Source of the DNA: Eledone cirrhosa
Lineage: Eukaryota
DNA: 64,000 nucleotides
Direction of reading: 5' to 3'
Assembly: GCA_964016885.1 (NCBI GenBank)
Contig: CAXHJY010001352.1
Location: forward strand, 1 to 64,000
The notes beneath the pieces were generated by a model that searched no databases, had not been told where the DNA came from, and was given only the letters and a program-made list of their open reading frames with translations. This document shows, one piece after another, positions 5,477 to 61,352 of this stretch. Within the stretch, counting starts at the first letter, position 1; each line of letters starts with the position of its first letter. Both the position numbers and the translations under genes were made by a program.

Positions 5477-6039
5477 TGTTTGTCTCTACTTCTACAACTG
5501 GTTATATATATGTATATATATGTGTGTGTGTATATGTGTTATGTGTATGAATGTAATTCCAAACACCTTCACAATTTCAAAATTTTCAGATAAATTTACC
5601 AAATCTAAAATGAAATATAGGAAAAAGAAATATTGATTAGTTTTGTGAAAATATTAGTTTTTCAAATAAATGGATTAATAAGAAAACATCATTTTCTCTA
5701 AATATATTAAATCCAGCTGTTTATTTGGCAAATATGATCAACAATGAGAATAATCACTAAAAATAAATGTTAACAAAGAAAAATATGATATTACATGTAT
5801 TGTATGAAGAAAGTCCTAGTGAGAAAATGTAGTTACACAGAATATAAGTATTGCCAATGAATATATATAAGAAGTATTGCCAACTTGGAGCACCCCCTGG
5901 TGCTCAAGTGGTCACACATGCCATTCAAACAAAGAAGGTGGCTTGGAAATAAGTCCTTCTTGCACTTGCAGGACAAGCAGTCATGAAAAGTCACAGCAGA
6001 GACGACAGTCAGGTGTCTAAAATTAAGACATGGGAAATA

Positions 6040-12331: not shown

Positions 12332-12355
12332 GTGCCTTTTCTCTTCACCACCAAC

Positions 12356-15300
12356 ATGGCTATGCTAAGAGTAGGCTGTTTAAATGCGCGTGGCCTGGGC
12401 TCAACTTGGAAGCAAGCAATGCTTCTAAATGACCTCAGGTCACAACGTATAGATGTGATGGTTATTTGCGAGGCCCGGATCAGCAACGTGCGACAGCTGG
12501 CCCCCACCTTTGATGACTTTGAGATGCACGCATCTCTCTGTCAGCCCGGAGGTGGGGGTGGAGTTGTCGTTCTGCTGCAAAAACATCTGGGTCTCGCAAC
12601 ACAGATGGTACATTTGGACCCGGAGGGTCGACTAGTGGTTCTGGACCTTGGCAGTGGTAAAGGCGGAGCGTTTAGGTTGGTAGCCGCCTACGGCCCTTTC
12701 GGGTCAATGCGGCCGGACTTCTTCCATCGTCTGGAGACTTTTCTAGGGACGTCCCGCTCCTTGCTATTAGTGGGGGACTGGAATGGTATCCTAGATGCAC
12801 GCTGGGACTACGTAGGGGCCTGCCCCGATAGAGAGGGGTGTAATAGCCTCAAAGGGTTAATCGGTCGATTTGACCTGGCCGATAGATATCGACTAGATTT
12901 TCCGACTGCGCCAACCTGGACTTGGGCAAATCGTAGCGGATCATCTAGGTCGTACCTAGATAGGTTCTTAGTTAGAATTAAGGATAAGGACTTTTTAAGT
13001 TGTCCAAAAATGCGCATGGTTGGCTATTCAGACCACAAATTAGTGACCTGCATGGTCAACCTTGACAGAACTCATAGACAGGGCCCCGGTTACTGGAAGC
13101 TCAACTTGTCCTTGCCGGCAAGTAGAGCCTACAGGAATCGGATTAGTACGTTAGTTAAGGAACGGTTGACTGGAGCGATCGTCAACAGCAGGTGGTGGGT
13201 ATCTCTAAAGAGAGAGATTAGAGTAGTCTCGATAGAATTTAGTAAGGTTCTAGCTGCGGATAGGAATAGGAAGGAAAGGGAGCTAATAGATAGAGTAGAA
13301 GAGGCAATTAGAAGCAGCGACGTGGCCACAGTGCTAGCGTCGAGAACGGTTTTGAGCCAGTTTTTCGACGCGAAGCACGAAGGCTGCGTTGTCCGAAGTA
13401 AAATACGTGCTCTAGGGAACGAGGGGACCAAAGCTGTTAGCTGGGCCCGCGTGACAGAGGCCAACAGTGGAACTAAATCCACCATCCGGTCTTTGCGAGA
13501 CCTGGATGGACGGGCGATTCTTGAGCCTGAGCAGATGTGTGAGGCCTTTCAAAGGCACTTTGCCCGACTGTTCGGGAGGGGCGGGGAGCCGGTTGGGAAC
13601 GTGGACTTCGGTCCATACCTCGACGGCCTGCCGCGCCTCTCGGACAGGGAGGCGAAGTCCTGCGAGGAGCCGATTTCGGCCGCTGAGATAGAGGACGTGC
13701 TGAGCCAATGCGGCAAACGCAAATCCCCGGGTCTCGATGGTCTTCCTTACGAATTATATCTAGCTATGCCGGACTTGTTCCCCGATCTCCTCGAGGCGGT
13801 CTACTGCAACTGGCAACAGAACGGGAGAATTCCCTGTACTGTGACCAAGGGCGTAGTCACGCTAGTGAGGAAGGACGAGAACAAGGGGGACGAAATAAGT
13901 AACTTCAGGCCCATAACTCTGCTAAATACAGAGTTACAGATTTTGGCCAAGGTGCTAGCAAAGAGGTTGGCGCTTGTCGTGGGCAACCTGGTGGGAGATG
14001 CGCAGACATGCGCTATCCCGTCCAGGTCCATCCATGACAACCTCCACCTCATGCGATACATCATAGAGAGGGTTGGGAATGAACCCGGCTTTGGTGGGGC
14101 TCTGATCAACTTGGATCAATCTAAGGCGTTCGATAGGGTCGACCATGGTTACCTGGATGCGGTGCTAGCGGCGGCAGGCTTCGGACCCATTTTCAGGGGC
14201 TGGATCACTGCTATGCACAGCAGCCGCATCTGCTCTAGGGTCAAGGTGAACGGCTACCTCTCGGAGCCGTTCAAAATCGCGCGGTCCATCCGACAAGGGT
14301 GCCCTCTCTCCTCCCTTCTGTATGTGTTGACTCTCGAGCCACTACTGCGGAAGTTGGAGTTGTTGCAGGGCATCCCTTTGGAACCAGGATTGCGGAAAGC
14401 GGTGTCGGCCTACGCCGATGACGTGACAGTAATGGTGTCGACGGCCTCCGAAATCGAGGCGGTCGGCACCTTACTGGAGGAGTACGAAAAGTTCACAGGG
14501 GCTAAGCTGAACCGGGACAAGTCGATCGGTTTGCAACTCGGCACGTGGAGGGGCAGACCGATGCCCTCCGATGGCGTCGTCGGACGCTGGACGGAGGGCC
14601 CGGTGAAGTTGCTCGGGGTCTGGTTCGGACCGGACCTCCAGGTGGAGAAAAACTGGGCGGAGGTTACGAACAGGGTGTTTGCACTGACCAGAAGTGGGCC
14701 AGTTGCAAACTATCCCTGAAAGGTCGGGCGGAGGTGGCGAACACCTACATAGCGTCCGTCATCTACTACCGCCTGACCGTAGTGCCCTGCCCAAGGGAAA
14801 CCCTCACCAAGATGGAGCGCGCGCTCTTCCAATTCCTTTGGAAGAGGCGGGCTCCTATGGTGAGGAGATCCATCTGCTGTCAACACCCTTCGAAAGGAGG
14901 GCTGGGGATGCCGTGGCTAATGATGCGTAAACACGCATTAAGGCTACGGCACCTCTACGTATTCCTCACCGGACAACCGGTGTGGGCCTCGTTTGTGAGA
15001 CGAACCTTTCCCAGACTCGTCTCACTCACCGAGCTGCAATCCTGGGTCAAGCAAAGACCGAGAAAACTGGGCGCCTGGCACACTGAGTGTGCTCAGGCGC
15101 TCACTGCCCTCTGGCAGGCGGATCCGGTTATCAGTGGAGACTCCACCGCAACATTCTATAGAGGGCTGGTACGCAGCAGGTGCGACGACGCCCTCGGAGA
15201 AGCCCTAGACATGGAGGAGGACGAACTGGCGAGCCAGTTCGGTAGGACATTCAGCCCGGGACCTATGGACAACTTCCAGAAGTCCCTGGCCTGGCAGTGC

Positions 15301-15780
15301 TACCGAGGGGCTTTACCCGTTCGAGAAAGGCTCTACAGACACGGGCGCCCGGGTAGGGACCCCGCCAAAAAGATCTGTCCCAGATGCGTGTGCGACGAGG
15401 AAACCGTTGCACACGCATTGGTACACTGCTCGGGCGTAGCCGATCTGTGGGGCTATGTCGAACAACTGCTGTCAAGGGTGGGACCGATCCGGTTGACCAC
15501 CGAGTCTATTGTAATGATTAAGCCGCCTCCCCCCTTCAAAGATGAAGCAGAGGCAGTGTTTCTGTGCGTAATAGCCATGGCGAAAGAGGTTGTATGGCGG
15601 ACGCGTCTGAAAGGACTGAGGTCAGGCACCTTTCTCTCTGGCCAACAACTGGTCCGTTTCTTCCGTTATCATTTCGGAAGAAGGATCAGGATGGAGAGAG
15701 AGGTGCTGCACCCCAGCCGTTTCTATGAAAGATGGGTGAAAGTGGCGAGAATGGCCCGTGTGAATGGGCCTTCACCCTAA
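12356..15780 (+). CDS. Tx1/L1 ORF2: APE endonuclease, reverse transcriptase, C-terminal CCHC; one frameshift near 14688
   Basis: LNARGL, GDWN, SYLDRF, SDH (EN); GPGYWKLN; KSPGLDG, FRPITLLN, DQSKAFDRVDH, RQGCPLS, YADD (RT); CPRC-x8-H-x4-C. Adding one C at ~14688 gives ALTQKWASCKLSLKGR. Confidence 0.9.
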
Positions 15781-15790
15781 ATATATATAT

Positions 15791-16128
15791 CATCATCATC
15801 ATTTCATTTTACATCCACTTTTCCCTGCTTGCAAGGGTGGGACGGGAACTGATTCTGGCTTGATTTCTACACCTGGATGCCATTCCTAACACCAACCTCA
15901 TTTACAGTGTGGGCTGGGTGCTTTTTTTTGCCGTGGCACCTCCACGACTTTGCAGTGGAATGATAGGGACCCTAGTCCCTATCATCTCATTTCTACAGCT
16001 GAGTACGCTGGAGCAATGTGAAATAAAGTGTCTTGCTCAAGGAAACAACACATCACCTAGTCTGAGAAATGAGCTCACAACTTTTCGATTGCAAGGCCAA
16101 TGCTCTAACCACTAAGCCATGTGCCTCC
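15791..16128 (-). mobile_element. tRNA-derived CORE-type SINE (family 1) with RTE-derived tail
   Basis: Reverse complement: A-box tggcttagtgg, B-box-like segment, ccttgagcaagacact...cagctgtagaaatgag CORE-like block, (ATG)n tail. Confidence 0.85.
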
Positions 16129-16134
16129 ATCCAT

Positions 16135-16171
16135 CCATATATATATATATATATGTACGTACGTATGTATG

Positions 16172-16231
<60 letters not shown>

Positions 16232-16244
16232 CGTATATATATGT

Positions 16245-16278
<34 letters not shown>

Positions 16279-16297
16279 CACATACATATATATATGT

Positions 16298-16329
<32 letters not shown>

Positions 16330-16348
16330 CACATACATATATATATGT

Positions 16349-16380
<32 letters not shown>

Positions 16381-16747
16381 CACATACATATATATATATT
16401 ATATATATATATATGAAACATACATATATATATATATATATATATACATACGTACATATATATATATACATACATATATACATATACATACATACATATA
16501 TATATATACATACATACATACATATATATACATATATATATATATACATACATATATATATATATATACATACATATATATATATATATACATACATATA
16601 TATATATATATACATACATATATATATATATATACATACATATATATATACATACATATATATATACATACATATATATATATATACATACATATATATA
16701 TACATACATATATATATACATATATATATTATATATATATATATGAA

Positions 16748-16778
<31 letters not shown>

Positions 16779-16885
16779 CATACGTACATATATATATATA
16801 CATACATATATACATATACATACGTACATATATATATATACATACATATATACATATACATACATACATATATATATATACATAC

Positions 16886-16919
<34 letters not shown>

Positions 16920-17132
16920 ATACATACATATATATATATATATACATACATATATATATATATATACATACATATATATATATATATACATACATATATA
17001 TATATATATACATACATATATATATACATACATATATATATACATACATATATATATATATACATACATATATATATACATACATATATATATACATATA
17101 TATATTATATATATATATATGAAACATACATA
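16135..17132. repeat. (TA)n/(TACA)n microsatellite with higher-order repeats
   Basis: Marker atatgaaacatac recurs at ~16411, ~16741 and ~17117. Confidence 0.9.
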
Positions 17133-20100
17133 TTATGATGTTAATATGTATGTTAATATTATGATGTTCCCTGCTGTATTAGCGTTAAATTTTCCCTGCT
17201 GTATTAGCGATAAATTTTCGAGGGTTTCTCTTAGTAGCTTTTTTCATGACGTTATTATTGTTAATTTTACTGATGTAGTATTAACTTATTAACTTGGATA
17301 TTTACCATGCGGTATTCTAATCCTATTGTATCTCTCTTCAGTTATTTACCATGCGACCCTCAGTTCCTACCCCCCCCCCCCCCCTCTATGCACTTCTTTA
17401 AGGCTTACTACCCTGTCTTTAACCTAATTCATTCAATCTGAAAATATTGAAGAGATAAGACACTTTGCCATTCTTCTCTGCTAAAATGTACCAGTAGAGC
17501 TGATTCAAATTTTCCCAGCCAGCCATCCACCTAATCTACGAAGGTATTTTAGCCTACATATTGTCGTTAATATTATGATGTTCCCTGCTGTATTAGCGTT
17601 AAATTTTCCCTGCTGTATTAGCGATAAATTTTCGAGGGTTTCTCTTAGTAGCTTTTTCATGTCGTTAATATTATGATGTTCCCTGCTGTATTAGCGTTAA
17701 ATTTTCCCTGCTGTATTAGCGATAAATTTTCGAGGGTTTCTCTTAGTAGCTTTTTTCATGACGTTATTATTGTTAATTTTACTGATGTAGTATTAACTTA
17801 TTAACTTGGATATTTACCATGCGGTATTCTAATCCTATTGTATCTCTCTTCAGTTATTTACCATGCGACCCTCAGTTCCTACCCCCCCCCTCTATGCACT
17901 TCTTTAAGGCTTACTACCCTGTCTTTAACCTAATTCATTCAATCTGAAAATATTGAAGAGATAAGACACTTTGCCATTCTTCTCTGCTAAAATGTACCAG
18001 TAGAGCTGATTCAAATTTTCCCAGCCAGCCATCCACCTAATCTACGAAGGTATTTTAGCCTACATATTGTCGTTAATATTATGATGTTCCCTGCTGTATT
18101 AGCGTTAAATTTTCCCTGCTGTATTAGCGATAAATTTTCGAGGGTTTCTCTTAGTAGCTTTTTCATGTCGTTAATATTATGATGTTCCCTGCTGTATTAG
18201 CGTTAAATTTTCCCTGCTGTATTAGCGATAAATTTTCGAGGGTTTCTCTTAGTAGCTTTTTTCATGACGTTATTATTGTTAATTTTACTGATGTAGTATT
18301 AACTTATTAACTTGGATATTTACCATGCGGTATTCTAATCCTATTGTATCTCTCTTCAGTTATTTACCATGCGACCCTCAGTTCCTACCCCCCCCCCCCC
18401 TCTATGCACTTCTTTAAGGCTTACTACCCTGTCTTTAACCTAATTCATTCAATCTGAAAATATTGAAGAGATAAGACACTTTGCCATTCTTCTCTGCTAA
18501 AATGTACCAGTAGAGCTGATTCAAATTTTCCCAGCCAGCCATCCACCTAATCTACGAAGGTATTTTAGCCTACATATTGTCGTTAATATTATGATGTTCC
18601 CTGCTGTATTAGCGTTAAATTTTCCCTGCTGTATTAGCGATAAATTTTCGAGGGTTTCTCTTAGTAGCTTTTTCATGTCGTTAATATTATGATGTTCCCT
18701 GCTGTATTAGCGTTAAATTTTCCCTGCTGTATTAGCGATAAATTTTCGAGGGTTTCTCTTAGTAGCTTTTTTCATGACGTTATTATTGTTAATTTTACTG
18801 ATGTAGTATTAACTTATTAACTTGGATATTTACCATGCGGTATTCTAATCCTATTGTATCTCTCTTCAGTTATTTACCATGCGACCCTCAGTTCCTACCC
18901 CCCCCCCCTCTATGCACTTCTTTAAGGCTTACTACCCTGTCTTTAACCTAATTCATTCAATCTGAAAATATTGAAGAGATAAGACACTTTGCCATTCTTC
19001 TCTGCTAAAATGTACCAGTAGAGCTGATTCAAATTTTCCCAGCCAGCCATCCACCTAATCTACGAAGGTATTTTAGCCTACATATTGTCGTTAATATTAT
19101 GATGTTCCCTGCTGTATTAGCGTTAAATTTTCCCTGCTGTATTAGCGATAAATTTTCGAGGGTTTCTCTTAGTAGCTTTTTCATGTCGTTAATATTATGA
19201 TGTTCCCTGCTGTATTAGCGTTAAATTTTCCCTGCTGTATTAGCGATAAATTTTCGAGGGTTTCTCTTAGTAGCTTTTTTCATGACGTTATTATTGTTAA
19301 TTTTACTGATGTAGTATTAACTTGGATATTTACCATGCGGTATTCTAATCCTATTGTATCTCTCTTCAGTTATTTACCATGCGACCCTCAGTTCCTACCC
19401 CCCCCCCTCTATGCACTTCTTTAAGGCTTACTACCCTGTCTTTAACCTAATTCATTCAATCTGAAAATATTGAAGAGATAAGACACTTTGCCATTCTTCT
19501 CTGCTAAAATGTACCAGTAGAGCTGATTCAAATTTTCCCAGCCAGCCATCCACCTAATCTACGAAGGTATTTTAGCCTACATATTGTCGTTAATATTATG
19601 ATGTTCCCTGCTGTATTAGCGTTAAATTTTCCCTGCTGTATTAGCGATAAATTTTCGAGGGTTTCTCTTAGTAGCTTTTTCATGTCGTTAATATTATGAT
19701 GTTCCCTGCTGTATTAGCGTTAAATTTTCCCTGCTGTATTAGCGATAAATTTTCGAGGGTTTCTCTTAGTAGCTTTTTTCATGACGTTATTATTGTTAAT
19801 TTTACTGATGTAGTATTAACTTATTAACTTGGATATTTACCATGCGGTATTCTAATCCTATTGTATCTCTCTTCAGTTATTTACCATGCGACCCTCAGTT
19901 CCTACCCCCCCCCCCCCTCTATGCACTTCTTTAAGGCTTACTACCCTGTCTTTAACCTAATTCATTCAATCTGAAAATATTGAAGAGATAAGACACTTTG
20001 CCATTCTTCTCTGCTAAAATGTACCAGTAGAGCTGATTCAAATTTTCCCAGCCAGCCATCCACCTAATCTACGAAGGTATTTTAGCCTACATATTGTCGT

Positions 20101-20866
20101 TAATATTATGATGTTCCCTGCTGTATTAGCGTTAAATTTTCCCTGCTGTATTAGCGATAAATTTTCGAGGGTTTCTCTTAGTAGCTTTTTCATGTCGTTA
20201 ATATTATGATGTTCCCTGCTGTATTAGCGTTAAATTTTCCCTGCTGTATTAGCGATAAATTTTCGAGGGTTTCTCTTAGTAGCTTTTTTCATGACGTTAT
20301 TATTGTTAATTTTACTGATGTAGTATTAACTTGGATATTTACCATGCGGTATTCTAATCCTATTGTATCTCTCTTCAGTTATTTACCATGCGACCCTCAG
20401 TTCCTACCCCCCCCCCCTCTATGCACTTCTTTAAGGCTTACTACCCTGTCTTTAACCTAATTCATTCAATCTGAAAATATTGAAGAGATAAGACACTTTG
20501 CCATTCTTCTCTGCTAAAATGTACCAGTAGAGCTGATTCAAATTTTCCCAGCCAGCCATCCACCTAATCTACGAAGGTATTTTAGCCTACATATTGTCGT
20601 TAATATTATGATGTTCCCTGCTGTATTAGCGTTAAATTTTCCCTGCTGTATTAGCGATAAATTTTCGAGGGTTTCTCTTAGTAGCTTTTTCATGTCGTTA
20701 ATATTATGATGTTCCCTGCTGTATTAGCGTTAAATTTTCCCTGCTGTATTAGCGATAAATTTTCGAGGGTTTCTCTTAGTAGCTTTTTTCATGACGTTAT
20801 TATTGTTAAAATTTTACTGATGTAGTATTAACTTGGATATTTACCATGCGACCCTCAGTTCCTACC
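17133..20866 (+). repeat. Tandem array of ~505-bp near-identical monomers (about 7.3 copies), each a 98-bp block plus a ~410-bp block starting with the same 98 bp
   Basis: gttaatattatgatgttccctgctg starts at 17152, 17566/17664, 18072/18170, 18582/18680, 19090/19188, 19589/19687, 20099/20197, 20599/20697; differences mostly poly-C length and an 8-bp indel. Confidence 0.95.
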
Positions 20867-21106
20867 TCACAATTTCCCTCCCCCCCACCCCCACACACCA
20901 CCATAGTCTATTCGACCAATCAAACCTAGCATGCCATTTCCACTGCTGCTGCTACTACCTGCCTAACTAACTCTCTCCTCCTCTGGCGCATCCCAACACA
21001 CCCTGCCATTACCCCACCACCACTGTTCTTCTAGCCCTCAATTTTCCCACCGTTATGGATGGATGAGCTGGGAATACACGAGCAACTCTGAATCAATAGA
21101 TGAAAT

Positions 21107-24100
21107 ATGAATCTGCGAGCTACCAAGCACCCACGTGAGGCGCCAACCCAGAGACCCTCCCCTACGAGTGTCGACAAATGCCCAAAACTCCGAGTTGGTA
21201 CCATCAATGTAGGCTCAATGAAAGGAAGAGCAGGAGAAATCGTAGAAATGCTAGAGCGAAAGGAAGTTGATGTATGCTGTGTGCAAGAGACTAGATGGAG
21301 AGGAGGGTCTGCTAGAGTCCTTGTAGGAAAAAGCCAGTGCTACAAATTTTTCTGGGTGGGAAATGACGATGGGATGGGTGGTGTAGGTATACTATTAGCT
21401 GACAAGTGGGTAGATAAAGTAATCTCAGTGTACAGGGTAAATGCAAGAATCATTAAACTCAGACTAGTCCTGAATAAGACAATTACCACAATAATATCAG
21501 CTTACGCACCCCAATCGGGGCTGCCAGACGAACTTAAGGATAGGTTTTACGAGTCCCTAATACACACTACTGCTCTAACAGACGACAAGGACTTCCTAAT
21601 CATTGCAGGAGATTTTAACGGACACGTAGGTAAACACTGCGACGGCTTCAATAGAGTACATGGAGGCCATGGAGTTGGCACAAGGAATGAGGAAGGATTC
21701 AGACTTCTAGAATTCTGCGACGCCAATGACATGTCGATATGTAACACAAACTTTAAAAAACCCGACAACCACCTGATCACCTATAGATCAGGGGAGCACT
21801 CTAGTCAGTTAGATTTTATTCTCATCAGAGGACGTGACAGATGGACGGTCGTAAACACAAAAGCCTTCCCTAGTGAGGAATGTACATCCCAACATAGCTT
21901 AGTTGTCAGCGACCTCACGGTCAGAACTAGACGAGCCCTGAAACAGAGGCCAACCTGGAGAAGAAAGATCTGGAAGCTGAAAGTCCCCTCAACCAGTAAC
22001 AGATTTAAAGATATTTTACTCAACGCCTACGACAGTAAAGAAGAACAGATAGAGACATTTAACGTAGAAGAGAACTGGGAGTTCCTAAAAAATAACTTAC
22101 TAGAGGCGACGGATGAGGTTTGTGGCTGGAGTAAGACCTCAAGCAGGAGGAGAGTGACTTGGTGGTGGAACAATAAGGTAGATGAAGCAGTCAAGGCCAA
22201 GAGACAGGCATGGAAAGAATGGAAGAACGGGGGGAGCAGGGTACATTACATAGAGACCAAGAGGGAAGCTAGGCGACAAGTATACTTAGCTAGGAGGGAA
22301 GCAGAGGATAGAAAATTCAAGCATGTTTTACAACGTGAGGACCAGAAACAGGAGGTATTCAAGATTGCGAGGCAGTGTGTCAGAGATAGTTGTGATGTCA
22401 TTGGAGAGAAGTGTATCCGGAATGATAAAGGTGAGCTTGCCCTCACAAGTGCTGAGAAGAAAGATGCATGGAAGAGTCATTATGATAGATTACTAAATGA
22501 GGAGAATGCATGGGAAGAAGAGACCCTACCCCACGTAGACCCTATAGAGGGACCAGCAGTACAAGTCAGCGGCAGCGTAGTAAGTAAGGCAATCAGAGAT
22601 ATGAAGATAGGGAAGGCAACCGGTCCATCGGGTATAGCTGCCGAGATGCTGAAGGCATCTGGGTCTGTAGGTCACACTATAACCACACGTATCGTTAACC
22701 AGGTAATACTAGAGGGGGCCATACCAAAAGATTGGTGCAGTAGCATCATTGTCAACTGCTACAAAGGTAAAGGCGATGCACTAGATAGAGGAAACTATAG
22801 AGGTATAAAGTTGATGGACCAGGTCATGAAAGTAACAGAAAGAGTTATAGCACAGCTGATTAGGGACCGGGTGAATATAGACGAGATGCAATTTGGGTTT
22901 GTTCCAGGGAAAGGCACCACTGATGCGCTCTTCCTTGTGAGGCAATTACAGGAAAAGTACCTAGCTAAAAGTAAGCCACTCTACCTGGCATTTGTCGACC
23001 TTGAGAAAGCCTTTGACAGAGTTCCACGTGCAGTAATCTGGTGGGCTCTTAGAAAACTAGGAGTAGATGAATGGCTTGTGAAAGCGGTACAAGCCATGTA
23101 TAGGGGAGCAGTCAGCAAAGTTAGGATTGGCAATGAGTATAGCGAGGAATTTAGCGTACAGGTTGGGGTCCACCAGGGCTCTGTTCTTAGCCCTCTCCTG
23201 TTCATCATAGTCCTGCAGGCAATAACGGAGGAGTTTAAGACCGGATGCCCATGGGAACTCCTGTATGCTGATGACCTCGCACTCATAGCTGAATCTATGG
23301 TAGAACTAGAGAATAAATTCCAAACCTGGAAGCAGGGACTAGAGAGAAAGGGCCTCAAAGTCAACATGACAAAGACTAAGGTCCTTATAAGTAGACGAGA
23401 AAACAGAACCCAGATCCCCTCAGGGAAATGGCCTTGCTCAGTATGTAGGAAAGGTGTAGGTAGGAACTCCATTCTTTGCCCCAAATGCAAACAATGGGTA
23501 CACAAGAGATGTAGCGGGATCTCAGGAAGCTTAATTAAGAATGTAGGATTCACATGCAGCAGCTGTGCTGAAACAGCAAGCAAACAGCCACAGGAAACAA
23601 GTACCACCAATCTCTGGGAGGGCCCTGTAGAAACAGTAGACAGCTTCTGCTACCTAGGTGACCGAATTAGCAACGGAGGTGGGTGCTCAGAAAGTACAAT
23701 AACTAGGGTAAGAACGGGATGGAAGAAGTTTAGGGAACTACTACCACTGCTAGCTGCAAAAGGCTTCTCCCTCAGAATGAAAGGCAGACTGTATGATGCG
23801 TGTATCCGAACAGCGATGTTGCATGGTAGTGAGACCTGGGCGCTGAAGGTGGAAGACTTACGTAGATTAGAGAGAAACGAAGCCTGCATGCCCCGATGGA
23901 TGTGTAACAGTAATATACGTGAACGACAAAGCATAAATGAATTGAGAGAGAGACTGAGCATAAGAGGAATCAAATGCTGCGTGCAGGAGAGGCGGTTACG
24001 CTGGTATGGACATGTGATGCGTATGAAGGATGACAGCTGCATAAAAAGGTGCAGAGCACTAGAAGTTGATGGAAACCGCGGAGTGGGGAGACCCAAGATG

Positions 24101-24226
24101 ACTTGGGATGAGGTGATAAAAGCCGACCTTACCCAACTACACCTCTCAAAGTCAATGACACACGACCGTGACTTCTGGCGTCACGCAGTAATACAGGGTA
24201 CCCGACCTCCCATGGGTACATGCTGA
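21107..24226 (+). CDS. RTE LINE polyprotein (APE endonuclease, RT with embedded PHD-like finger), 1039 aa, intact
   Basis: GTINV, VQETRW, SAYAPQ, GDFNGHVG, SQH (EN); [65 protein letters not shown]. Confidence 0.97.
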   Translation: MNLRATKHPREAPTQRPSPTSVDKCPKLRVGTINVGSMKGRAGEIVEMLERKEVDVCCVQETRWRGGSARVLVGKSQCYKFFWVGNDDGMGGVGILLADKWVDKVISVYRVNARIIKLRLVLNKTITTIISAYAPQSGLPDELKDRFYESLIHTTALTDDKDFLIIAGDFNGHVGKHCDGFNRVHGGHGVGTRNEEGFRLLEFCDANDMSICNTNFKKPDNHLITYRSGEHSSQLDFILIRGRDRWTVVNTKAFPSEECTSQHSLVVSDLTVRTRRALKQRPTWRRKIWKLKVPSTSNRFKDILLNAYDSKEEQIETFNVEENWEFLKNNLLEATDEVCGWSKTSSRRRVTWWWNNKVDEAVKAKRQAWKEWKNGGSRVHYIETKREARRQVYLARREAEDRKFKHVLQREDQKQEVFKIARQCVRDSCDVIGEKCIRNDKGELALTSAEKKDAWKSHYDRLLNEENAWEEETLPHVDPIEGPAVQVSGSVVSKAIRDMKIGKATGPSGIAAEMLKASGSVGHTITTRIVNQVILEGAIPKDWCSSIIVNCYKGKGDALDRGNYRGIKLMDQVMKVTERVIAQLIRDRVNIDEMQFGFVPGKGTTDALFLVRQLQEKYLAKSKPLYLAFVDLEKAFDRVPRAVIWWALRKLGVDEWLVKAVQAMYRGAVSKVRIGNEYSEEFSVQVGVHQGSVLSPLLFIIVLQAITEEFKTGCPWELLYADDLALIAESMVELENKFQTWKQGLERKGLKVNMTKTKVLISRRENRTQIPSGKWPCSVCRKGVGRNSILCPKCKQWVHKRCSGISGSLIKNVGFTCSSCAETASKQPQETSTTNLWEGPVETVDSFCYLGDRISNGGGCSESTITRVRTGWKKFRELLPLLAAKGFSLRMKGRLYDACIRTAMLHGSETWALKVEDLRRLERNEACMPRWMCNSNIRERQSINELRERLSIRGIKCCVQERRLRWYGHVMRMKDDSCIKRCRALEVDGNRGVGRPKMTWDEVIKADLTQLHLSKSMTHDRDFWRHAVIQGTRPPMGTC

Positions 24227-24530
24227 AGCATATAAACAATATGCCCCCCCCCCCCCCCACCGCAAGGTGGTCGTGGAGGTGCCACGGCAAAAAAGCACCC
24301 AGCCCACACTGTAAAGTGGACGTGTAGGCGCCACGAAAAAGCACCCAGCACTCACTGTAAATGAGGTTGGTGTTAGGAAGGGCATCCAGCTGTAGAAATC
24401 AAGCCAGATCAGTTCCTGTATGAGCAAGGCATGGTCAGCCGACCAGACACTGCCCACAACAGGACAACCCGTCTAACCCATGCTAGCGTGGAAGAACGGA
24501 CGTAAAACGGTGATGATGATGATGATGATG

Positions 24531-24662
24531 ATATATATATATATATATATATATACATACGTACATATATATATATACATACATATATACATATACATAC
24601 GTACATATATATATATACATACATATATACATATACATACATACATATATATATATACATAC

Positions 24663-24696
<34 letters not shown>

Positions 24697-24876
24697 ATAC
24701 ATACATATATATATATATATACATACATATATATATATATATACATACATATATATATATATATACATACATATATATATATATATACATACATATATAT
24801 ATACATACATATATATATATATACATACATATATATATACATACATATATATATATATACATACATATATATATAC

Positions 24877-24911
<35 letters not shown>

Positions 24912-24978
24912 CATACATATATATATACATACATATATATATATATATATATACATACATATATATATATATACATAC

Positions 24979-25017
<39 letters not shown>

Positions 25018-25082
25018 CATACATACATATATATATATATACATACATACATACATATATATACATACATACATATATATAT

Positions 25083-25135
<53 letters not shown>

Positions 25136-25150
25136 TACATATATATATAT

Positions 25151-25191
<41 letters not shown>

Positions 25192-25324
25192 TACATATAT
25201 ATATACACATATATATATACACATACATATATATATATATATACATACATATATATATATATATACATACATATATATATATACATACGTACATATATAT
25301 ATATACATACATATATATATATAT

Positions 25325-25359
<35 letters not shown>

Positions 25360-25431
25360 CATACATATATATATATATATACATACATATATATATATAT
25401 ATACATACATATATATATATATATACATACA

Positions 25432-25465
<34 letters not shown>

Positions 25466-25682
25466 CATACATATATATGTATATATATACATATATATAT
25501 ATATACATACATATATATATATATACATACATATATATATACATACATACATATATATATACATACATACATATATATATATACATACATATATATATAT
25601 ATATATATACATACATACATATATATATATACATACATATATATATACATACATATATATATATACATACATACATATATAC

Positions 25683-25754
<72 letters not shown>

Positions 25755-25788
25755 ATATATACATACATACATATACATATATATATAT

Positions 25789-25875
<87 letters not shown>

Positions 25876-25970
25876 CATACATATATATACATATACATAC
25901 ATATATATACATATACATACATATATATACATATACATACATATATATACATACATACATATATATATAT

Positions 25971-26001
<31 letters not shown>

Positions 26002-26046
26002 CATACATATATATATATATACATACATATATATATATATATATAC

Positions 26047-26086
<40 letters not shown>

Positions 26087-26116
26087 ATATACATACATAT
26101 ATATATATATACATAC

Positions 26117-26167
<51 letters not shown>

Positions 26168-26361
26168 CATATATATACATACATATATATATATATATAC
26201 ATACATATATATATATATATACATACATATATATATATATATACATACATATATATATATATATACATACATATATATATATATATACATACATATATAT
26301 ATATATATACATACATATATATATATATATACATACATATATATATATATATACATACAGA

Positions 26362-26399
<38 letters not shown>

Positions 26400-26436
26400 C
26401 ATACATACATATATATATACATACATATATATATAT

Positions 26437-26479
<43 letters not shown>

Positions 26480-26688
26480 TACATATATATATATATATAT
26501 ATATACAGATACATATATATATATACACATATATATATACACATACATATATATATATATATACACATACATATATATATATACACATACATATATATAT
26601 ATACACATACATATATATATATATACACATACATATATATATATACACATACATATATATATATACACATACATATATATATATATAT

Positions 26689-26733
<45 letters not shown>

Positions 26734-26770
26734 TATATATATATATAAATACACACACATATATATATAT

Positions 26771-26807
<37 letters not shown>

Positions 26808-26888
26808 CATATATATATACACATACATATATATATATATACACATACACATATATATATATATATACATACATATATATATATATAT

Positions 26889-26919
<31 letters not shown>

Positions 26920-27028
26920 CATACATACATATATATATATACATACATATATATATATATACATACATATATATATATATACACATACACATATATATAT
27001 ATATATACATACATATATATACATATAT

Positions 27029-27071
<43 letters not shown>

Positions 27072-27140
27072 CATATATATATATATATACATACATATTA
27101 TATATATATACATACATATATATATATATATACATACATA
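24531..27140. repeat. 2.6-kb (TA)n/(TACA)n microsatellite
   Basis: Direct reading. Confidence 0.95.
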
Positions 27141-27750
27141 TGGTGGCTGCCAACTCGTTTTCGAGTACGGCCACTACTTTATATCCATGTAGGAGAACCC
27201 CTACTGATGCGCTGAACGAGTGTGACTTTTTAGTCCAGCCAGCGACTTGAAAGCTCTGGTACAAACACTACACTTGTGACAATTATTGACACATAGTGCT
27301 GGGCCCATGGTACCATGTGACGACAAATGCAGAGAGATCTCCAGATATAAAGCAATGCCTGTGCCGTGAAGCTTTTATAGTGAGCAAAGGCACTGCACAA
27401 AGCCAGTCCCACTCTCTTAACCAAGATGATATTTACCAAAAAGAAGAACAAGTCAACATCATTGGATACCATCAGGGTTGCAGGTGTTATATCAGAGTTT
27501 TCCTTCTCCTAGAATTCTGCCTTGACAAAGGCTAAGGGGTCATCTCTCCCGGTGATTTTGGATGGCCATTGACTCTTAAGAGCTCCTTTGCCTTTTGACA
27601 GGTTTTGTTTTTAGTCCTGCAGGATGTCCAAAGTCACCCTCCTCACCAAGAAACCTTGGTGGGGTTGCCAGTTTAGTCGCCAACGACCCGACCATGGGAC
27701 AGGTTGTACTGGAATACATGTTACCAGTAGCACCAACTGGTGACCTGACA
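27141..27750 (-). mobile_element. Probable 5' UTR fragment of another RTE-like LINE
   Basis: GC-richer island between microsatellites; minus strand has cccttagcc...aaggcagaattctaggagaaggaaaactctga, which resembles RTE 5' UTR motifs as I recall them. Confidence 0.4.
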
Positions 27751-27914
27751 TATATACATACATATATATATATATATACATACATACTCTTTTACTCTTT
27801 TACCTGTTTCAGCCATCCGGCTGAGGCCATGCTGGGGCACCGCCCTTGTTGCTACACATTTTATCTCCAGCCTGTATAGGTTGGCCACTGGTGTAGGAGG
27901 GAGTTTGTTGCTGC

Positions 27915-29910
<1,996 letters not shown>

Positions 29911-31532
29911 AAAGGTAAACCCCTCTACTTAGCTTTTGTTGACTTGGAGAAAGCCTTCGACAGAGTCCCCCGCTCCATTATCTGGTGGGCTCTTAGAAAA
30001 CTAGGTGTTGATGAATGGCTTGTGAGGGCTATACAAGCCATATATAAAGAAACAGTCAGCAAGGTTAGAATTAACAACGAATATAGTGAAGAGTTTAGCG
30101 TAAAAGTTGGTGTCCATCAGGGCTCTGTTCTCAGCCCCCTACTATTTATTATTGCCCTTCAGGCTATAACAGAGGAGTTCAAGACCGGCTGCCCATGGGA
30201 ACTCCTATACGCAGACGACCTAACACTCATAGCTGAATCAATGGCCGAGCTAGAGAAGAAATTCCAAACATAGAAGCACGGCCTAGAATCAAAAAGCCTT
30301 AAAATTAACCTGGCTAAGACTAAAGTTCTAGTTTGTAGGAAAGAAAATAAGGCGGCGGTCCCTTCCGGGAAATGGCCATGCTCAGTGTGTAGGAAAGGCG
30401 TAGGTAGAAACTCCATTTTATGTCCCAAATGCAAAGTATGGGTGCATAAAAGATGTAGTGGGAACACAGGTAAGCTAACTAAGAACTTAGATTTTACATG
30501 TGGGCGGTGCTCTGGTGCAATAAGTAGCAGCAAGTGCCCAATAAATACTAACTCTTTCAATTGCGCAGAGGGCTCTATAGAAATAGTGGACAGCTTCCGT
30601 TACCTGGGTGACAAAATCAGCAGTGGGGGAGGGTGCTCTGAAAGTACAGTAGCTAGAGTCAGAACTGGATGGAAAAAGTTCAGAGAGCTTATACCACTAT
30701 TAGCCGCTAAAGGGTTCTCCCTAAAAATGAAAGGCAGATTGTATGATGCTTGCATACGAACAGCAATGTTGCATGGCAGTGAGACCTGGGCATTGTGTGC
30801 AGAGGATATACGCAGACTAGAGGGGAACGAAGCTTGCATGCTCCGCTGGATGTGCAATAGTAATATACGTGAACGGCAAAGCATAAACGAACTAAGGAAA
30901 AAATTAGAAATAAGAGGGATCAGATGTTGTTTACTTGAGAGAAGGCTTCGTTGGTACGGACACGTGATGCGCATGAAAGATGACAGCTGCATAACAAAGT
31001 GCAGGGCAATAAAGATAGACGGTAGCCATGGAGTAGGCAGACCTAGAAAATCCTGGGACGAGCTGATAAACTCCGACCTCACACACTTACACCTCTCCAA
31101 GACAATGTCACTGGACCGAGACCTTTGGCGGTACTCAGTAATAGAGAAGACCCGCCTTACCTAAATACATAGGCATCTCTAACAAAATACACCCCCGTCC
31201 CACCACCCACACCCCATCCACACAACCCCCTTCTATGTAAAGTTATGTTGGTGCCACAACATCCAGGCCGAAACAAATGAGATCGTTTAGGTGTCACGAC
31301 AAAAAAACACACAGTCCACGCTGTAATGTGGCCGTGTAGGCAACACGGTAAAAACCTCCCAGCCCCACACTGTAAATGTGGTTGGTGTTAGGAAGGGCAT
31401 CCAACTGTAGAAAACCTGCCAGACAGTCCTATGCGAGCAAGACAACCACTCTTGCCTCAAGTGGGACTACCCCCGTCCAAACCCATGCAAGCGTGGAACA
31501 CGGTCGTTAAACGTTGATGATGATGATGATGA
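29911..31532 (+). mobile_element. 5'-truncated RTE LINE, subfamily B (RT, PHD-like insert, 3' UTR); nonsense codon at 30271
   Basis: ORFs 29944-30273 and 30385-31164 are in the same frame and align to the C-terminal ~40% of the 1039-aa protein; distinct 3' UTR; (GAT)n tail. Confidence 0.93.
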
Positions 31533-31605
31533 TACATACATATATATATATATACATACATATATATATATATATACATACATATATATATATATATATA
31601 CATAC

Positions 31606-34713: not shown

Positions 34714-37700
34714 CATCATCATCATCATCATCATCACCGTTTTACGTCCGTTCTTCCACGCTAGCATGGGTTAGACGGGTTGTCCTGTTGTGGGCAGTGT
34801 CTGGTCGGCTGACCATGCCTTGCTCATACAGGAACTGATCTGGCTTGATTTCTACAGCTGGATGCCCTTCCTAACACCAACCTCATTTACAGTGAGTGCT
34901 GGGTGCTTTTTCGTGGCGCCTACACGTCCACTTTACAGTGTGGGCTGGGTGCTTTTTTGCCGTGGCACCTCCACGACCACCTTGCGGTGGGTGGGGGGGG
35001 GGCATATTGTTTATATGCTTCAGCATGTACCCATGGGAGGTCGGGTACCCTGTATTACTGCGTGACGCCAGAAGTCACGGTCGTGTGTCATTGACTTTGA
35101 GAGGTGTAGTTGGGTAAGGTCGGCTTTTATCACCTCATCCCAAGTCATCTTGGGTCTCCCCACTCCGCGGTTTCCATCAACTTCTAGTGCTCTGCACCTT
35201 TTTATGCAGCTGTCATCCTTCATACGCATCACATGTCCATACCAGCGTAACCGCCTCTCCTGCACACAGCATTTGATTCCTCTTATGCTCAGTCTCTCTC
35301 TCAATTCCTTTATGCTTTGTCGTTCACGTATATTACTGTTACACATCCATCGGAGCATGCAGGCTTCGTTTCTCTCTAATCTATGTAAGTCTTCCACCTT
35401 CAGCGCCCAGGTCTCACTACCATGCAACATCGCTGTTCGGATACACGCATCATACAGTCTGCCTTTCATTCTGAGGGAGAAGCCTTTTGCAGCTAGCAGT
35501 GGTAGTAGTTCCCTAAACTTCTTCCATCCCGTTCTTACCCTAGTTATTGTACTTTCTGAGCACCCACCTCCGTTGCTAATTCGGTCACCTAGGTAGCAGA
35601 AGCTGTCTACTGTTTCTACAGGGCCCTGCCAGAGATTGGTGGTACTTGTTTCCTGTGGCTGTTTGCTTGCTGTTTCAGCACAGCTGCTGCATGTGAATCC
35701 TACATTCTTAATTAAGCTTCCTGAGATCCCGCTACATCTCTTGTGTACCCATTGTTTGCATTTGGGGCAGAGAATGGAGTTCCTACCTACACCTTTCCTA
35801 CATACTGAGCAAGGCCATTTCCCTGAGGGGATCTGGGTTCTGTTTTCTCGTCTACTTATAAGGACCTTAGTCTTTGTCATGTTGACTTTGAGGCCCTTTC
35901 TCTCTAGTCCCTGATTCCAGGTTTGGAATTTATTCTCTAGTTCTACCATAGATTCAGCTATGAGTGCGAGGTCATCAGCATACAGGAATTCCCATGGGCA
36001 TCCGGTCTTAAACTCCTCCGTTATTGCCTGCAGGACTATGATGAACAGGAGAGGGCTAAGAACAGAGCCCTGGTGAACCCCAACCTGTACGCTAAATTCC
36101 TCGCTATACTCATTGCCAATCCTAACTTTGCTGACTGCTCCCCTATACATGGCTTGTACCGCTTTCACAAGCCATTCATCTACTCCTAGTTTTCTAAGAG
36201 CCCACCAGATTACTGCACGTGGAACTCTGTCAAAGGCTTTCTCAAGGTCGACAAATGCCAAGTAGAGTGGCTTACTTTTAGCTAGGTACTTTTCCTGTAA
36301 TTGCCTCACAAGGAAGAGGGCATCAGTGTTGCCTTTCCCTGGTACAAACCCAAATTGCATCTCGTCTATATTCACCCGGTCCCTAATCAGCTGTGCTATA
36401 ACTCTTTCTGTTACTTTCATGACCTGGTCCATCAACTTTATACCTCTATAGTTTCCTCTATCTAGTGCATCACCTTTACCTTTGTAGCAGTTGACAATGA
36501 TGCTACTGCACCAATCTTTTGGTATGGCCCCCTCTAGTATTACCTGGTTAACGATACGTGTGGTTATAGTGTGACCTACAGACCCAGATGCCTTCAGCAT
36601 CTCGGCAGCTATACCCGATGGACCGGTTGCCTTCCCTATCTTCATATCTCTGATTGCCTTACTTACTACGCTGCCGCAGACTTGTACTGCTGGTCCCTCT
36701 ATAGGGTCTACGTGGGGTAGGGTCTCTTCTTCCCATGCATTCTCCTCATTTAGTAATCTATCATAATGACTCTTCCATGCATCTTTCTTCTCAGCACTTG
36801 TGAGCGCAAGCTCACCTTTATCATTCCGGATACACTTCTCTCCAATGACATCACAACTATCTCTGACACACTGCCTCGCAATCTTGAATACCTCCTGTTT
36901 CTGGTCCTCACGTTGTAAAACATGCTTGAATTTTCTATCCTCTGCTTCCCTCCTAGCTAAGTATACTTGTCGCCTAGCTTCCCTCTTGGTCTCTATGTAA
37001 TGTACCCTGCTCCCCCCGTTCTTCCATTCTTTCCATGCCTGTCTCTTGGCCTTGACTGCTTCATCTACCTTATTGTTCCACCACCAAGTCACTCTCCTCC
37101 TGCTTGAGGTCTTACTCCAGCCACAAACCTCATCCGTCGCCTCTAGTAAGTTATTTTTTAGGAACTCCCAGTTCTCTTCTACGTTAAATGTCTCTATCTG
37201 TTCTTCTTTACTGTCGTAGGCGTTGAGTAAAATATCTTTAAGTCTGTTACTGGTTGAGGGGACTTTCAGCTTCCAGATCTTTCTTCTCCAGGTTGGCCTC
37301 TGTTTCAGGGCTCGTCTAGTTCTGACCGTGAGGTCACTGACAACTAAGCTATGTTGGGATGTACATTCCTCACTAGGGAAGGCTTTTGTGTTTACGACCG
37401 TCCATCTGTCACGTCCTCTGATGAGGATAAAATCTAACTGACTAGAGTGCTCCCCTGATCTATAGGTGATCAGGTGGTTGTCGGGTTTTTTAAAGTTTGT
37501 GTTACATATCGACATGTCATTGGCGTCGCAGAATTCTAGAAGTCTGAATCCTTCCTCATTTCTTGTGCCAACCCCATGGCCTCCATGTACTCTATTGAAG
37601 CCGTCGCAGTGTTTACCTACGTGTCCGTTAAAATCTCCTGCAATGATTAGGAAGTCCTTGTCGTCTGTTAGAGCAGTAGTGTGTATTAGGGACTCGTAAA

Positions 37701-38146
37701 ACCTATCCTTAAGTTCGTCTGGCAGCCCCGATTGGGGTGCGTAAGCTGATATTATTGTGGTAATTGTCTTATTCAGGACTAGTCTGAGTTTAATGATTCT
37801 TGCATTTACCCTGTACACTGAGATTACTTTATCTACCCACTTGTCAGCTAATAGTATACCTACACCACCCATCCCATCGTCATTTCCCACCCAGAAAAAT
37901 TTGTAGCACTGGCTTTTTCCTACAAGGACTCTAGCAGACCCTCCTCTCCATCTAGTCTCTTGCACACAGCATACATCAACTTCCTTTTGCTCTAGCATTT
38001 CTACGATTTCTCCTGCTCTTCCTTTCATTGAGCCTACATTGATGGTACCAACTCGGAGTTTTGGGCATTTGTCGACACTCGTAGGGGAGGGTCTCTGGGT
38101 TGGCGCTTCACATGGGTGCTTGGTAGCTCGCAGATTCATATTTCAT
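34714..38146 (-). mobile_element. Intact RTE-clade LINE, subfamily A copy 2, 5' end truncated about 7 bp before the ATG
   Basis: Reverse complement of 21100-24530 with scattered substitutions; (CAT)n tail at 34714-34736. Confidence 0.95.
35020..38139 (-). CDS. RTE LINE polyprotein, 1039 aa, intact
   Basis: About 11 aa differences from the 21107-24226 product. Confidence 0.97.
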   Translation of the reverse strand: MNLRATKHPCEAPTQRPSPTSVDKCPKLRVGTINVGSMKGRAGEIVEMLEQKEVDVCCVQETRWRGGSARVLVGKSQCYKFFWVGNDDGMGGVGILLADKWVDKVISVYRVNARIIKLRLVLNKTITTIISAYAPQSGLPDELKDRFYESLIHTTALTDDKDFLIIAGDFNGHVGKHCDGFNRVHGGHGVGTRNEEGFRLLEFCDANDMSICNTNFKKPDNHLITYRSGEHSSQLDFILIRGRDRWTVVNTKAFPSEECTSQHSLVVSDLTVRTRRALKQRPTWRRKIWKLKVPSTSNRLKDILLNAYDSKEEQIETFNVEENWEFLKNNLLEATDEVCGWSKTSSRRRVTWWWNNKVDEAVKAKRQAWKEWKNGGSRVHYIETKREARRQVYLARREAEDRKFKHVLQREDQKQEVFKIARQCVRDSCDVIGEKCIRNDKGELALTSAEKKDAWKSHYDRLLNEENAWEEETLPHVDPIEGPAVQVCGSVVSKAIRDMKIGKATGPSGIAAEMLKASGSVGHTITTRIVNQVILEGAIPKDWCSSIIVNCYKGKGDALDRGNYRGIKLMDQVMKVTERVIAQLIRDRVNIDEMQFGFVPGKGNTDALFLVRQLQEKYLAKSKPLYLAFVDLEKAFDRVPRAVIWWALRKLGVDEWLVKAVQAMYRGAVSKVRIGNEYSEEFSVQVGVHQGSVLSPLLFIIVLQAITEEFKTGCPWEFLYADDLALIAESMVELENKFQTWNQGLERKGLKVNMTKTKVLISRRENRTQIPSGKWPCSVCRKGVGRNSILCPKCKQWVHKRCSGISGSLIKNVGFTCSSCAETASKQPQETSTTNLWQGPVETVDSFCYLGDRISNGGGCSESTITRVRTGWKKFRELLPLLAAKGFSLRMKGRLYDACIRTAMLHGSETWALKVEDLHRLERNEACMLRWMCNSNIRERQSIKELRERLSIRGIKCCVQERRLRWYGHVMRMKDDSCIKRCRALEVDGNRGVGRPKMTWDEVIKADLTQLHLSKSMTHDRDFWRHAVIQGTRPPMGTC

Positions 38147-38180
38147 ATACATATATATATATATGTATATGTATGTATAT

Positions 38181-41583: not shown

Positions 41584-42346
<763 letters not shown>

Positions 42347-51639: not shown

Positions 51640-52486
51640 TTCATATAACGGAGTTGTTTCTGAATGTATTAAATTATGTGGGGGACATTTAAGTCATGAC
51701 ACCGGTGTCAACTGGACGGTGAAATATTACCATTTATATCAGCTCCATTGTTACAACTTAAACCTCATCTAATTTTATCTTTTATGGTGATTATTTCATA
51801 TTAAGGTGGACGTTAATGTTTGTAAATAACATAAGGTGACTTATTTACCTTATAGTTGTTGTTTTATCACCTGTATTATTAAATATTGAAGTGGTTGTTC
51901 AACATTTTACAGGACAGGAAAATATTATTTTAATCAGAAATCAATGAACATTTAGTTTTTACTAACATTTCTTGACTTTATATTTGGTCTTGACAACTAA
52001 AGTATATATTATTTCCTTTTCCACCACAACACAAACATTGTGTACTTTTCTATCTGAAGTGAAATATCTTGATTTATTACAACACTTACACACATATTTC
52101 TACACACACACACGTCTATTTCTCTCGCTCATACCTACACTGTATGTCTGTATATATATATATGTATATATATTAACCTTCATCTTTTGAAATTATGGAT
52201 ATTAATTCTCTTGTCACCTGAACTGTCCTCAATAACAAGAACCTTAACTATAGAAGTCTTATTCGTCTGTTTTATGAGCTGAGGATGTTATTGTGAATAG
52301 AGCTTCTCTCACCTTAACAAAAATAAAAGATACACACACACACACGGACATATATATATATATATTAGCACTTGCTTCTACTTCTTCCAAGATCAGTCTT
52401 ACGCTTTCATACATCTTATTACTTTACCAACTGAATGCTACATTTCTTAATATATGAGTGGAAGTGGTGAGATTCCTTTATGAAAT

Positions 52487-61054: not shown

Positions 61055-61352
61055 AGAAATTCCAGAAAACATAACCGAGATCCTCTCAGGGAAATAGCCT
61101 TGTCCAGTATGTTGGAAAGGCATTGGTAGACATTCCATCCTCTGCCCCATATGGAGACTCAGCTGTTGGAAGCCTTGGAGCGGGGACACCTTGGAAGACC
61201 TGGGGTGAGGTGATACAAGCTGACCTTGCCCAATTGTACCTCTCAGAGGAGATGACACGTGGCCGGGATCTCTGGCGATGTGCAGTAATACAGAAGACCC
61301 GACTTCCCAGGAACACAAGCTGAAGCATATGTACAGCATGCCCCCCCCCCTC
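61055..61352 (+). mobile_element. Internally deleted RTE-A 3' fragment leading into the minisatellite
   Basis: PHD-region remnant joined to KTWGEVIQADLAQL..., then the start of the 3' UTR with its poly-C run. Confidence 0.8.

Follow-up and report, generated by a model that had tools for sequence, protein, structure and literature searches.

The window analysed here is a stretch of 64,000 nucleotides (nt) from Eledone cirrhosa (contig CAXHJY010001352.1, assembly GCA_964016885.1, positions 1 to 64,000 of the forward strand). It carries a long interspersed nuclear element (LINE) with a single open reading frame (ORF), which is preceded by a 3.7-kb array of about 7.3 tandem monomers (17133-20859). 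The initial annotation had proposed that array, leader, ORF and tail entered a host microsatellite as one insertion of ~7.4 kb, and our analysis confirmed this at the window site. Motif counts in the 3.0-Gb genome and comparisons of loci further confirmed that the tandem array is a family-wide, built-in 5' part of this young and abundant LINE. The features of the insertion are as follows.

16137..17132, unstranded: host (TA/CATA)n microsatellite; higher-order units begin at 16415, 16745 and 17121, the third one interrupted by the insertion
17133..17151, + strand: 5' junction of 19 bases, a monomer-like short extra copy ahead of the first aligned monomer base
17152..17561, + strand: distal monomer, 5'-truncated, 410 bp
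17562..20594, + strand: six full monomers of 499-510 bp, i.e. a 408-bp unit plus a doubled 98-bp sub-repeat
20595..20859, + strand: proximal partial monomer, continuing directly into the leader
20860..21096, + strand: non-repeated leader (tether), 237 bp, C-rich
20876..20922, + strand: CACCC-rich tract and GACCAATCA (CCAAT-box-like) within the leader, a candidate core promoter
21104..24226, + strand: single open frame, 1040 aa from stop to stop, first ATG at 21107
24227..24512, + strand: 3' untranslated region (UTR)
24513..24531 (end approximate), + strand: (TGA)n / (ATG)n tail
24532..24900, unstranded: host microsatellite unit, resumed

The six full units, in order 506, 510, 508, 499, 510 and 500 bp long, vary solely in poly-C length (9-13) and in an 8-bp deletion in two units; no substitution was found over the 15 pairs, which bears out the initial annotation of near-identical monomers. 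Its monomer size of ~505 bp, on the other hand, applies to the 506-bp form of the window subfamily, in which the 98-bp part is present two or more times by internal duplication; the basic unit is 408 bp. The ORF product matches Pfam domains for an endonuclease (aa 33-267, PF03372/PF14529), a reverse transcriptase (RT; aa 558-762, PF00078) and a PHD finger (aa 778-821), and in the leader and array interior there is no further frame of at least 150 aa and no ORF1.

When the flank at 17121-17132 is joined to 24532 onward, 37 run-length tokens in a row agree with the host unit before it (16745-17120), and the single deviation is one TA run that is 2 bases longer. Any target-site duplication (TSD) of this copy would be masked by the (TA)n run. 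Two counterpart loci of the left flank, on C1650 (99%) and C18 (97%), either alleles or duplicates, both lack the array as well as the LINE, and on C1650 the GAAACATACATA-(TA)n-CATAC unit runs on uninterrupted. An array without the LINE, which the initial annotation had regarded as contrary evidence, was thus seen in neither of the two empty loci. The neighbourhood 15650-31534 is present in at least three versions (window, C1650 and C18 near 7.36 Mb), and the C1650 version has an AT microsatellite stretch ~20 kb longer between the same anchors. In the family, flank strings of at least 10 bp (17-47 bp; control 0.3%) are shared at 11/70 loci, and TSDs are mostly unreadable because most targets are (TA)n runs that hide them.

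A second copy of the same family lies in the window at 34717..38149 on the - strand. It is full-frame and 99.2% identical to the main copy, with changes mainly C>T and G>A, and it has no leader or array, its 5' end being the ORF start within an AT run.

Linkage and inheritance of the array

Exact motif counts in the genome fell from 5109 near the ORF end to 2336 in its middle and 751 at its start; the monomer interior gave 1286. The array-leader junction of the window, at which the last monomer runs directly into the leader just as had been described, was found 589 times. Monomer DNA was found directly upstream of the leader in 39/39 other leader-bearing stretches from the 40 best leader matches, plus one monomer-match locus. 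Conversely, the first 100 exact monomer matches on C1 formed 32 clusters (counted by hand from the matches), of which 28 had the exact junction downstream, and the remaining four, when fetched, had leader and ORF downstream as well. The monomer check proposed with the initial annotation gave linkage to the LINE in 32/32 C1 clusters, together with variable copy number (arrays of 0.03 to 34.7 kb ahead of the 237-bp leader); unlinked cases numbered 0/32 among the C1 clusters and 0/7 among long arrays.

Starting from the ORF, 53 of 81 consecutive ORF-start copies on C1 reach the array (37 with the exact junction, 4 in the fetched clusters and 12 with variant monomers), and the other 28 stop in the leader or the first ORF bases with unrelated flanks. 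None of the 81 has an alternative shared 5' region, so that full-length copies with a different 5' end, the other kind of contrary evidence considered at the outset, did not appear in this set. Moreover, head-to-tail monomer joints were seen in raw reads of an independent reduced-representation run, and one contig of run X1 spans the last monomer bases and the leader into the ORF. The contigs of runs X6, X7, X8 and X9 hold monomer and ORF pieces, never the whole leader, and are silent on linkage.

The counts exclude L099 (a tandem duplicate of L082), L280 (an inverted duplicate of L279) and L246, in which a nested LINE divides the array, as well as three 5' ends wrongly mapped to phase 1. At L246 (G000:C1:8877764-8887664), the array is interrupted by the 3' end of the nested LINE with its own tail. 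L279 and L280 (C1 near 248.09 and 249.02 Mb) show the same insertion and flanks in opposite orientation ~0.93 Mb apart, either an inverted duplication or an assembly duplicate. At L026 (G000:C2:238646140-238649430), the monomer joins the ORF start almost directly and the leader is missing.

The monomer type is inherited with the ORF subfamily. Type X was found in 13/13 copies with ORF 364T vs 1/58 others, and type W in 31/32 vs 4/39 copies by ORF subfamily, though these associations represent two lineage events rather than 71, because kin share labels. Private changes in array and ORF correlate as well (rho 0.59, p 0.0002, 36 loci; rho 0.55, 15 loci). The same arrangement recurs in an older subfamily of 7 copies, whose ORF is ~98% identical and whose monomers are only 75-85% identical; judged from these identities, monomer sequence changes faster than the ORF. 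Two of the older copies (L155 and L156) carry fresh tandem duplications, of a 38-bp unit at the array-leader border and of a 34-bp unit inside the monomer.

Full-length copies of a sister family were found by means of a 5'-truncated copy at 29911-31533 of the window (76% identical). The ORF of this family is 72-76% identical and its leader motif gave 407 matches. Of 12 full-ORF copies, 3 show a 5' repeat with a period of ~540-600 bp and the rest are shorter; the 45 motif matches include 4 tandem pairs. The sister monomer gave no alignment above chance with the window-family monomer (43/300 shuffles score equally well), and the sister leader shares the CACCC-rich tract and GACCAATCA with the window-family leader (score 60, reached by 0/300 shuffles). 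For an older relative at 46628-49395, the 5'-end search gave mostly segmental duplicates of truncated copies and was uninformative.

Array length

Among 41 consecutive junction loci on C1 (43 minus two dropped; 20 further junction loci at C1 252-400 Mb lie outside the set), array length ranged from 34 to 7049 bp, with a mean of 1787 and a median of 1107, and was compatible with an exponential distribution (Kolmogorov-Smirnov p 0.54). The drop-off rate in the array was 1/1558 nt, based on 76 mapped 5' ends, vs 1/1581 nt across the ORF. With lengths that decay exponentially at about the ORF drop-off rate, and with 5' ends that do not peak sharply at any phase, most arrays appear to derive from long templates by truncated copying. 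On the simplest reading, the RT would carry on into a long array and dissociate there as often as elsewhere. The phase distribution of 5' ends is mildly uneven (p 0.003 with 12 bins, p 0.07 with 8 bins), 34/73 ends begin with TA or AT vs 21% background, and (TA)n targets flank 57/83 ends; the mild excess in AT-rich monomer parts fits AT microhomology with the (TA)n targets.

Under truncation alone, an array of 34,652 bp is expected 3e-6 times among 700 copies. Nevertheless, such an array exists, and it leads into leader and ORF, as does another of 14.4 kb. The 34.7-kb array, of 60 units, carries an 8-unit block duplication, in which four variants recur 8 units apart, and periods of 2, 4 and 8 units were found in other loci. 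The outlier length, the block duplication, the multi-unit periods and the uniformity of arrays suggest that some arrays grow or homogenise as DNA. We therefore favour a mix for the lengths: a long source array copied with random 5' truncation, plus DNA-level growth at some loci. The 34.7-kb array and its LINE (L105-L110, G000:C2:403805980-403844300) lie within a ~44-bp minisatellite, which extends beyond them to either side.

Of the three mechanisms offered in the initial annotation (a monomer-array promoter, repeated template jumping during reverse transcription, or post-insertion amplification), amplification from one monomer cannot be the general source of the arrays, and the monomer promoter is putative.

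Possible promoter role and alternative explanations

Taken together, the window copy may be explained as a young single-ORF (RTE-type) LINE with a built-in 5' tandem array of ~408-600-bp monomers that is truncated and regrown. Long array-bearing transcripts would be reverse-transcribed and their 5' ends cut at random, so that long-array source copies give daughters retaining ~1-2 kb of array; slippage or unequal exchange would lengthen the array again in some daughters, which would then serve as sources in turn. Such a truncate-and-regrow bottleneck would account for monomers that hardly vary at any one locus and yet evolve much more rapidly than the ORF. The monomers may drive or boost transcription, with the CACCC/CCAAT module of the leader as the proximal promoter, and a truncated copy could then still keep regulatory DNA. 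We hold this account, including a likely but putative upstream promoter/enhancer activity of the array, to be probably correct. How the arrays change in length is fairly well constrained; a promoter role of the monomers is putative. More tentatively, at somewhat less than even chances, the array may be a self-renewing, truncation-proof 5' regulatory region without a set 5' end that arose separately from that of rodent L1, is trimmed at random by each retrotransposition and regrows as DNA to tens of kilobases, with a monomer replaced far faster than the ORF, a constant CACCC/CCAAT core, and LINE-attached satellites seeded along the way.

Several observations weigh against this account. Shared flank strings of at least 10 bp occur at only 11/70 loci, and at several of these they sit in repetitive targets. 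The drop-off within the ORF, based on exact-match counts, varies from 1/1877 to 1/1377 nt by interval. The 5' ends fall at all monomer phases, the densest 21-nt window holding 11/76 ends (p 0.44), unlike in mouse L1. Arrays are more uniform than pure co-insertion would have them, with 0.090% changes vs 0.119% in ORFs in a first set and 29/76,950 vs 95/109,043 bases (0.038% vs 0.087%) in a larger one. The window locus itself has 0 monomer substitutions vs 2 private ORF changes; since arrays are more uniform than ORFs there and family-wide, some post-insertion growth or homogenisation is possible even at this locus. With regard to regulation, the monomer has 36% GC and 8 CpG per 408 bp and hence no CpG-island character; a YY1 core is absent, the two GCCAT words both lying outside the GCCATCTT core, and no TATA or CCAAT boxes were found in monomers. 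The 8 ATGs per 408-bp unit would also make a poor 5' UTR for a translated RNA. Finally, reiterative reverse transcription likewise predicts a steady drop-off rate, 5' ends without a phase peak and little variation within loci.

By this explanation, the RNA has one to few monomers and the RT re-anneals repeatedly to the 5' repeat, building the array during insertion. It would also suit the fact that a locus-private variant is fixed in every unit at 3/36 loci, and that unit structure already varies among copies with 0-2 private ORF changes. However, the periods of 2, 4 and 8 units and the mixed unit types within arrays require multi-unit templates or DNA exchange, the 34.7-kb array is far beyond the measured drop-off rate, and internal re-annealing without RNase H is, to our knowledge, not an established step of non-LTR (long terminal repeat) RTs. 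We thus regard reiterative reverse transcription as improbable. It is a little less unlikely, though still doubtful, that the array is a neutral hitch-hiking variable-number tandem repeat, with transcription from the CACCC/CCAAT module of the leader or by read-through from the flank, and with no regulatory role of the monomers. The best conserved promoter-like motif, and the sole one conserved with the sister family, sits in the leader rather than the monomer, and monomers have no known promoter motifs and turn over rapidly. Furthermore, the leader and first ORF bases hold more 5' ends than expected (28/81 vs 14, p 1e-4), and in 11/80 C1 ORF-start copies (L121-L160) the 5' end falls within 37 nt around the ATG, where 1.9 would be expected; this would fit shorter transcripts. 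On the other hand, 53/81 ORF-complete copies carry array DNA, and therefore many templates begin upstream of the leader; the tandem layout is kept in the older subfamily and the sister family despite replacement of the monomer sequence; and the excess at the ORF start may be AT microhomology with (TA)n targets. The excess in the leader and at the ATG may thus reflect shorter transcripts from the leader module or microhomology alone, and for the ends next to the ATG the candidate causes are a start site, an RT pause or microhomology. There is hardly any likelihood left for an independent satellite beside the LINE, an assembly artefact, or growth of every array from a single monomer after insertion; as a general account, this group of explanations is largely refuted. 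In its favour, the window monomers are identical save for homopolymer length and one indel, but the lack of unlinked monomer clusters (0/32), the empty counterpart loci without array, the tracking of ORF subfamily by monomer type, the 5' ends at all phases, and the head-to-tail joints in independent raw reads all stand against it.

The CACCC tract and GACCAATCA may represent KLF/Sp and NF-Y boxes, and this leader motif could act in RNA instead. A self-cleaving ribozyme, as in ribozyme-processed LINEs or retrozymes, was not found in monomer or leader, where Rfam gave only 3 unrelated sub-threshold matches, and a structured RNA was likewise rejected, the folding z of +0.80 (leader) and -0.36 (monomer) indicating no stable fold.

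In most copying events a LINE loses 5' regulatory DNA; the textbook example of compensation by a repeated promoter is rodent L1. The E. cirrhosa family has a comparable layout in a different type of LINE, and its 589 exact junctions mean hundreds of very young copies. Array length, the turnover of monomers and the birth of satellites can therefore be followed in it from one locus to the next as in a natural experiment, and regeneration of monomer arrays after truncation becomes testable. If the truncation-proof array is real, the element would seed satellites still joined to a full-length LINE. For annotation, consensus-based repeat libraries would separate the array from the LINE and lose its true 5' end.

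Comparison with known elements and other features of the window

The putative assignment of the LINE to the RTE type fits its architecture, its 3' tail (cf. the accessible text of PMC6007223) and motifs known to us. The tail is (ATG)n of 1-10 units, mostly 5-6, in 75/75 loci in which the 3' end motif was found. RTE TSDs are given as ~7-15 bp in the same text (PMC6007223). A homologue search gave 1146 relatives with the same endonuclease-RT-PHD layout; among the 120 homologues listed there was no named RTE reference, and PDB matches were only L1 and R2.

Among non-LTR elements, TRE5-A of Dictyostelium also has tandem 5' units, its A-modules, which show promoter activity; it is an L1-group, tRNA-gene-targeted element with short arrays. 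In the rodent literature, as far as its accessible text goes, monomers of mouse and rat L1 lie upstream of a tether of ~240-250 bp, make the promoter stronger and have their transcription starts near YY1 sites (PMC5381506, PMC10620060). Like mouse L1Md TF/A/GF and rat L1 in these sources (PMC5381506, PMC10620060), the present family has a variable number of tandem monomers upstream of a non-repeated tether, and the partial accounts of rodent L1 agree with it also in that arrays are mobilised with the element and are shorter in daughters, and in that monomer turnover exceeds that of the ORF. Unlike rodent L1, the window LINE is a single-ORF endonuclease-RT-PHD element without ORF1, and its family's monomers are AT-rich, without CpG island or YY1 core. 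According to the text available, 12/20 mouse L1 5' ends lie within or near a YY1 motif, whereas the ends of this family are not clustered at one phase. Arrays reaching 14-35 kb are another difference from rodent L1, and the promoter role of the monomer is putative here. The family is thus built like rodent L1 and is not a member of the rodent L1 monomer-promoter class.

Within the RTE clade, the accessible descriptions of octopus RTE-2_OV (PMC9115989) and tobacco SolRTE (bioRxiv 10.1101/2022.11.04.512097) agree with our family in a single ORF with endonuclease and RT, a microsatellite 3' tail, frequent 5' truncation and a fast-changing 5' region. For RTE-2_OV, the main text gives an ORF of 3327 nt that has a C2H2 finger, and UTRs of ~600 nt (PMC9115989), whereas the window LINE has a 3120-nt frame and a PHD finger. 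SolRTE, by its main text, exchanges non-homologous 5' UTRs, whereas the window family repeats one (bioRxiv 10.1101/2022.11.04.512097). The word 'tandem' is absent from the main texts on both elements (PMC9115989; bioRxiv 10.1101/2022.11.04.512097), and the accessible part of a paper on O. vulgaris repeats reports recently active RTE families without describing 5' arrays (PMC13282606). The repeat libraries of these two octopus studies (PMC13282606, PMC9115989) may hold this LINE family. In the literature covered, to which Repbase/Dfam, supplements and most subscription papers did not belong, we found no 5' monomer array for an RTE or a cephalopod LINE. In Lathyrus, LTR retrotransposons contain short tandem arrays, from which satellites have occasionally grown (PMC7004042). 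The likeness to that case, as far as this source describes it, is a dispersed retroelement that carries short arrays, sometimes expanding to satellite length (PMC7004042); the differences are that our carrier is non-LTR, that the array is its 5' terminus, and that expanded arrays are still joined to a full-length, nearly unmutated LINE body.

Several other features were observed in the window. A further LINE-like element at 12332-15780 consists of two frames that overlap (795 and 424 aa); its motifs resemble those of an endonuclease and an RT, and by these it may be L1/Tx1-like. Long open frames of 1235, 240 and 303 aa lie at 168-5485 on the - strand, and C2H2 zinc-finger arrays with an 84-bp period at 41636-42346 and 52484-53205. 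At 61352-64000, a 48-bp satellite of 55 copies runs past the window end, and its units match the repeat in the 3' UTR of the LINE (24290-24361) at ~78-82%.

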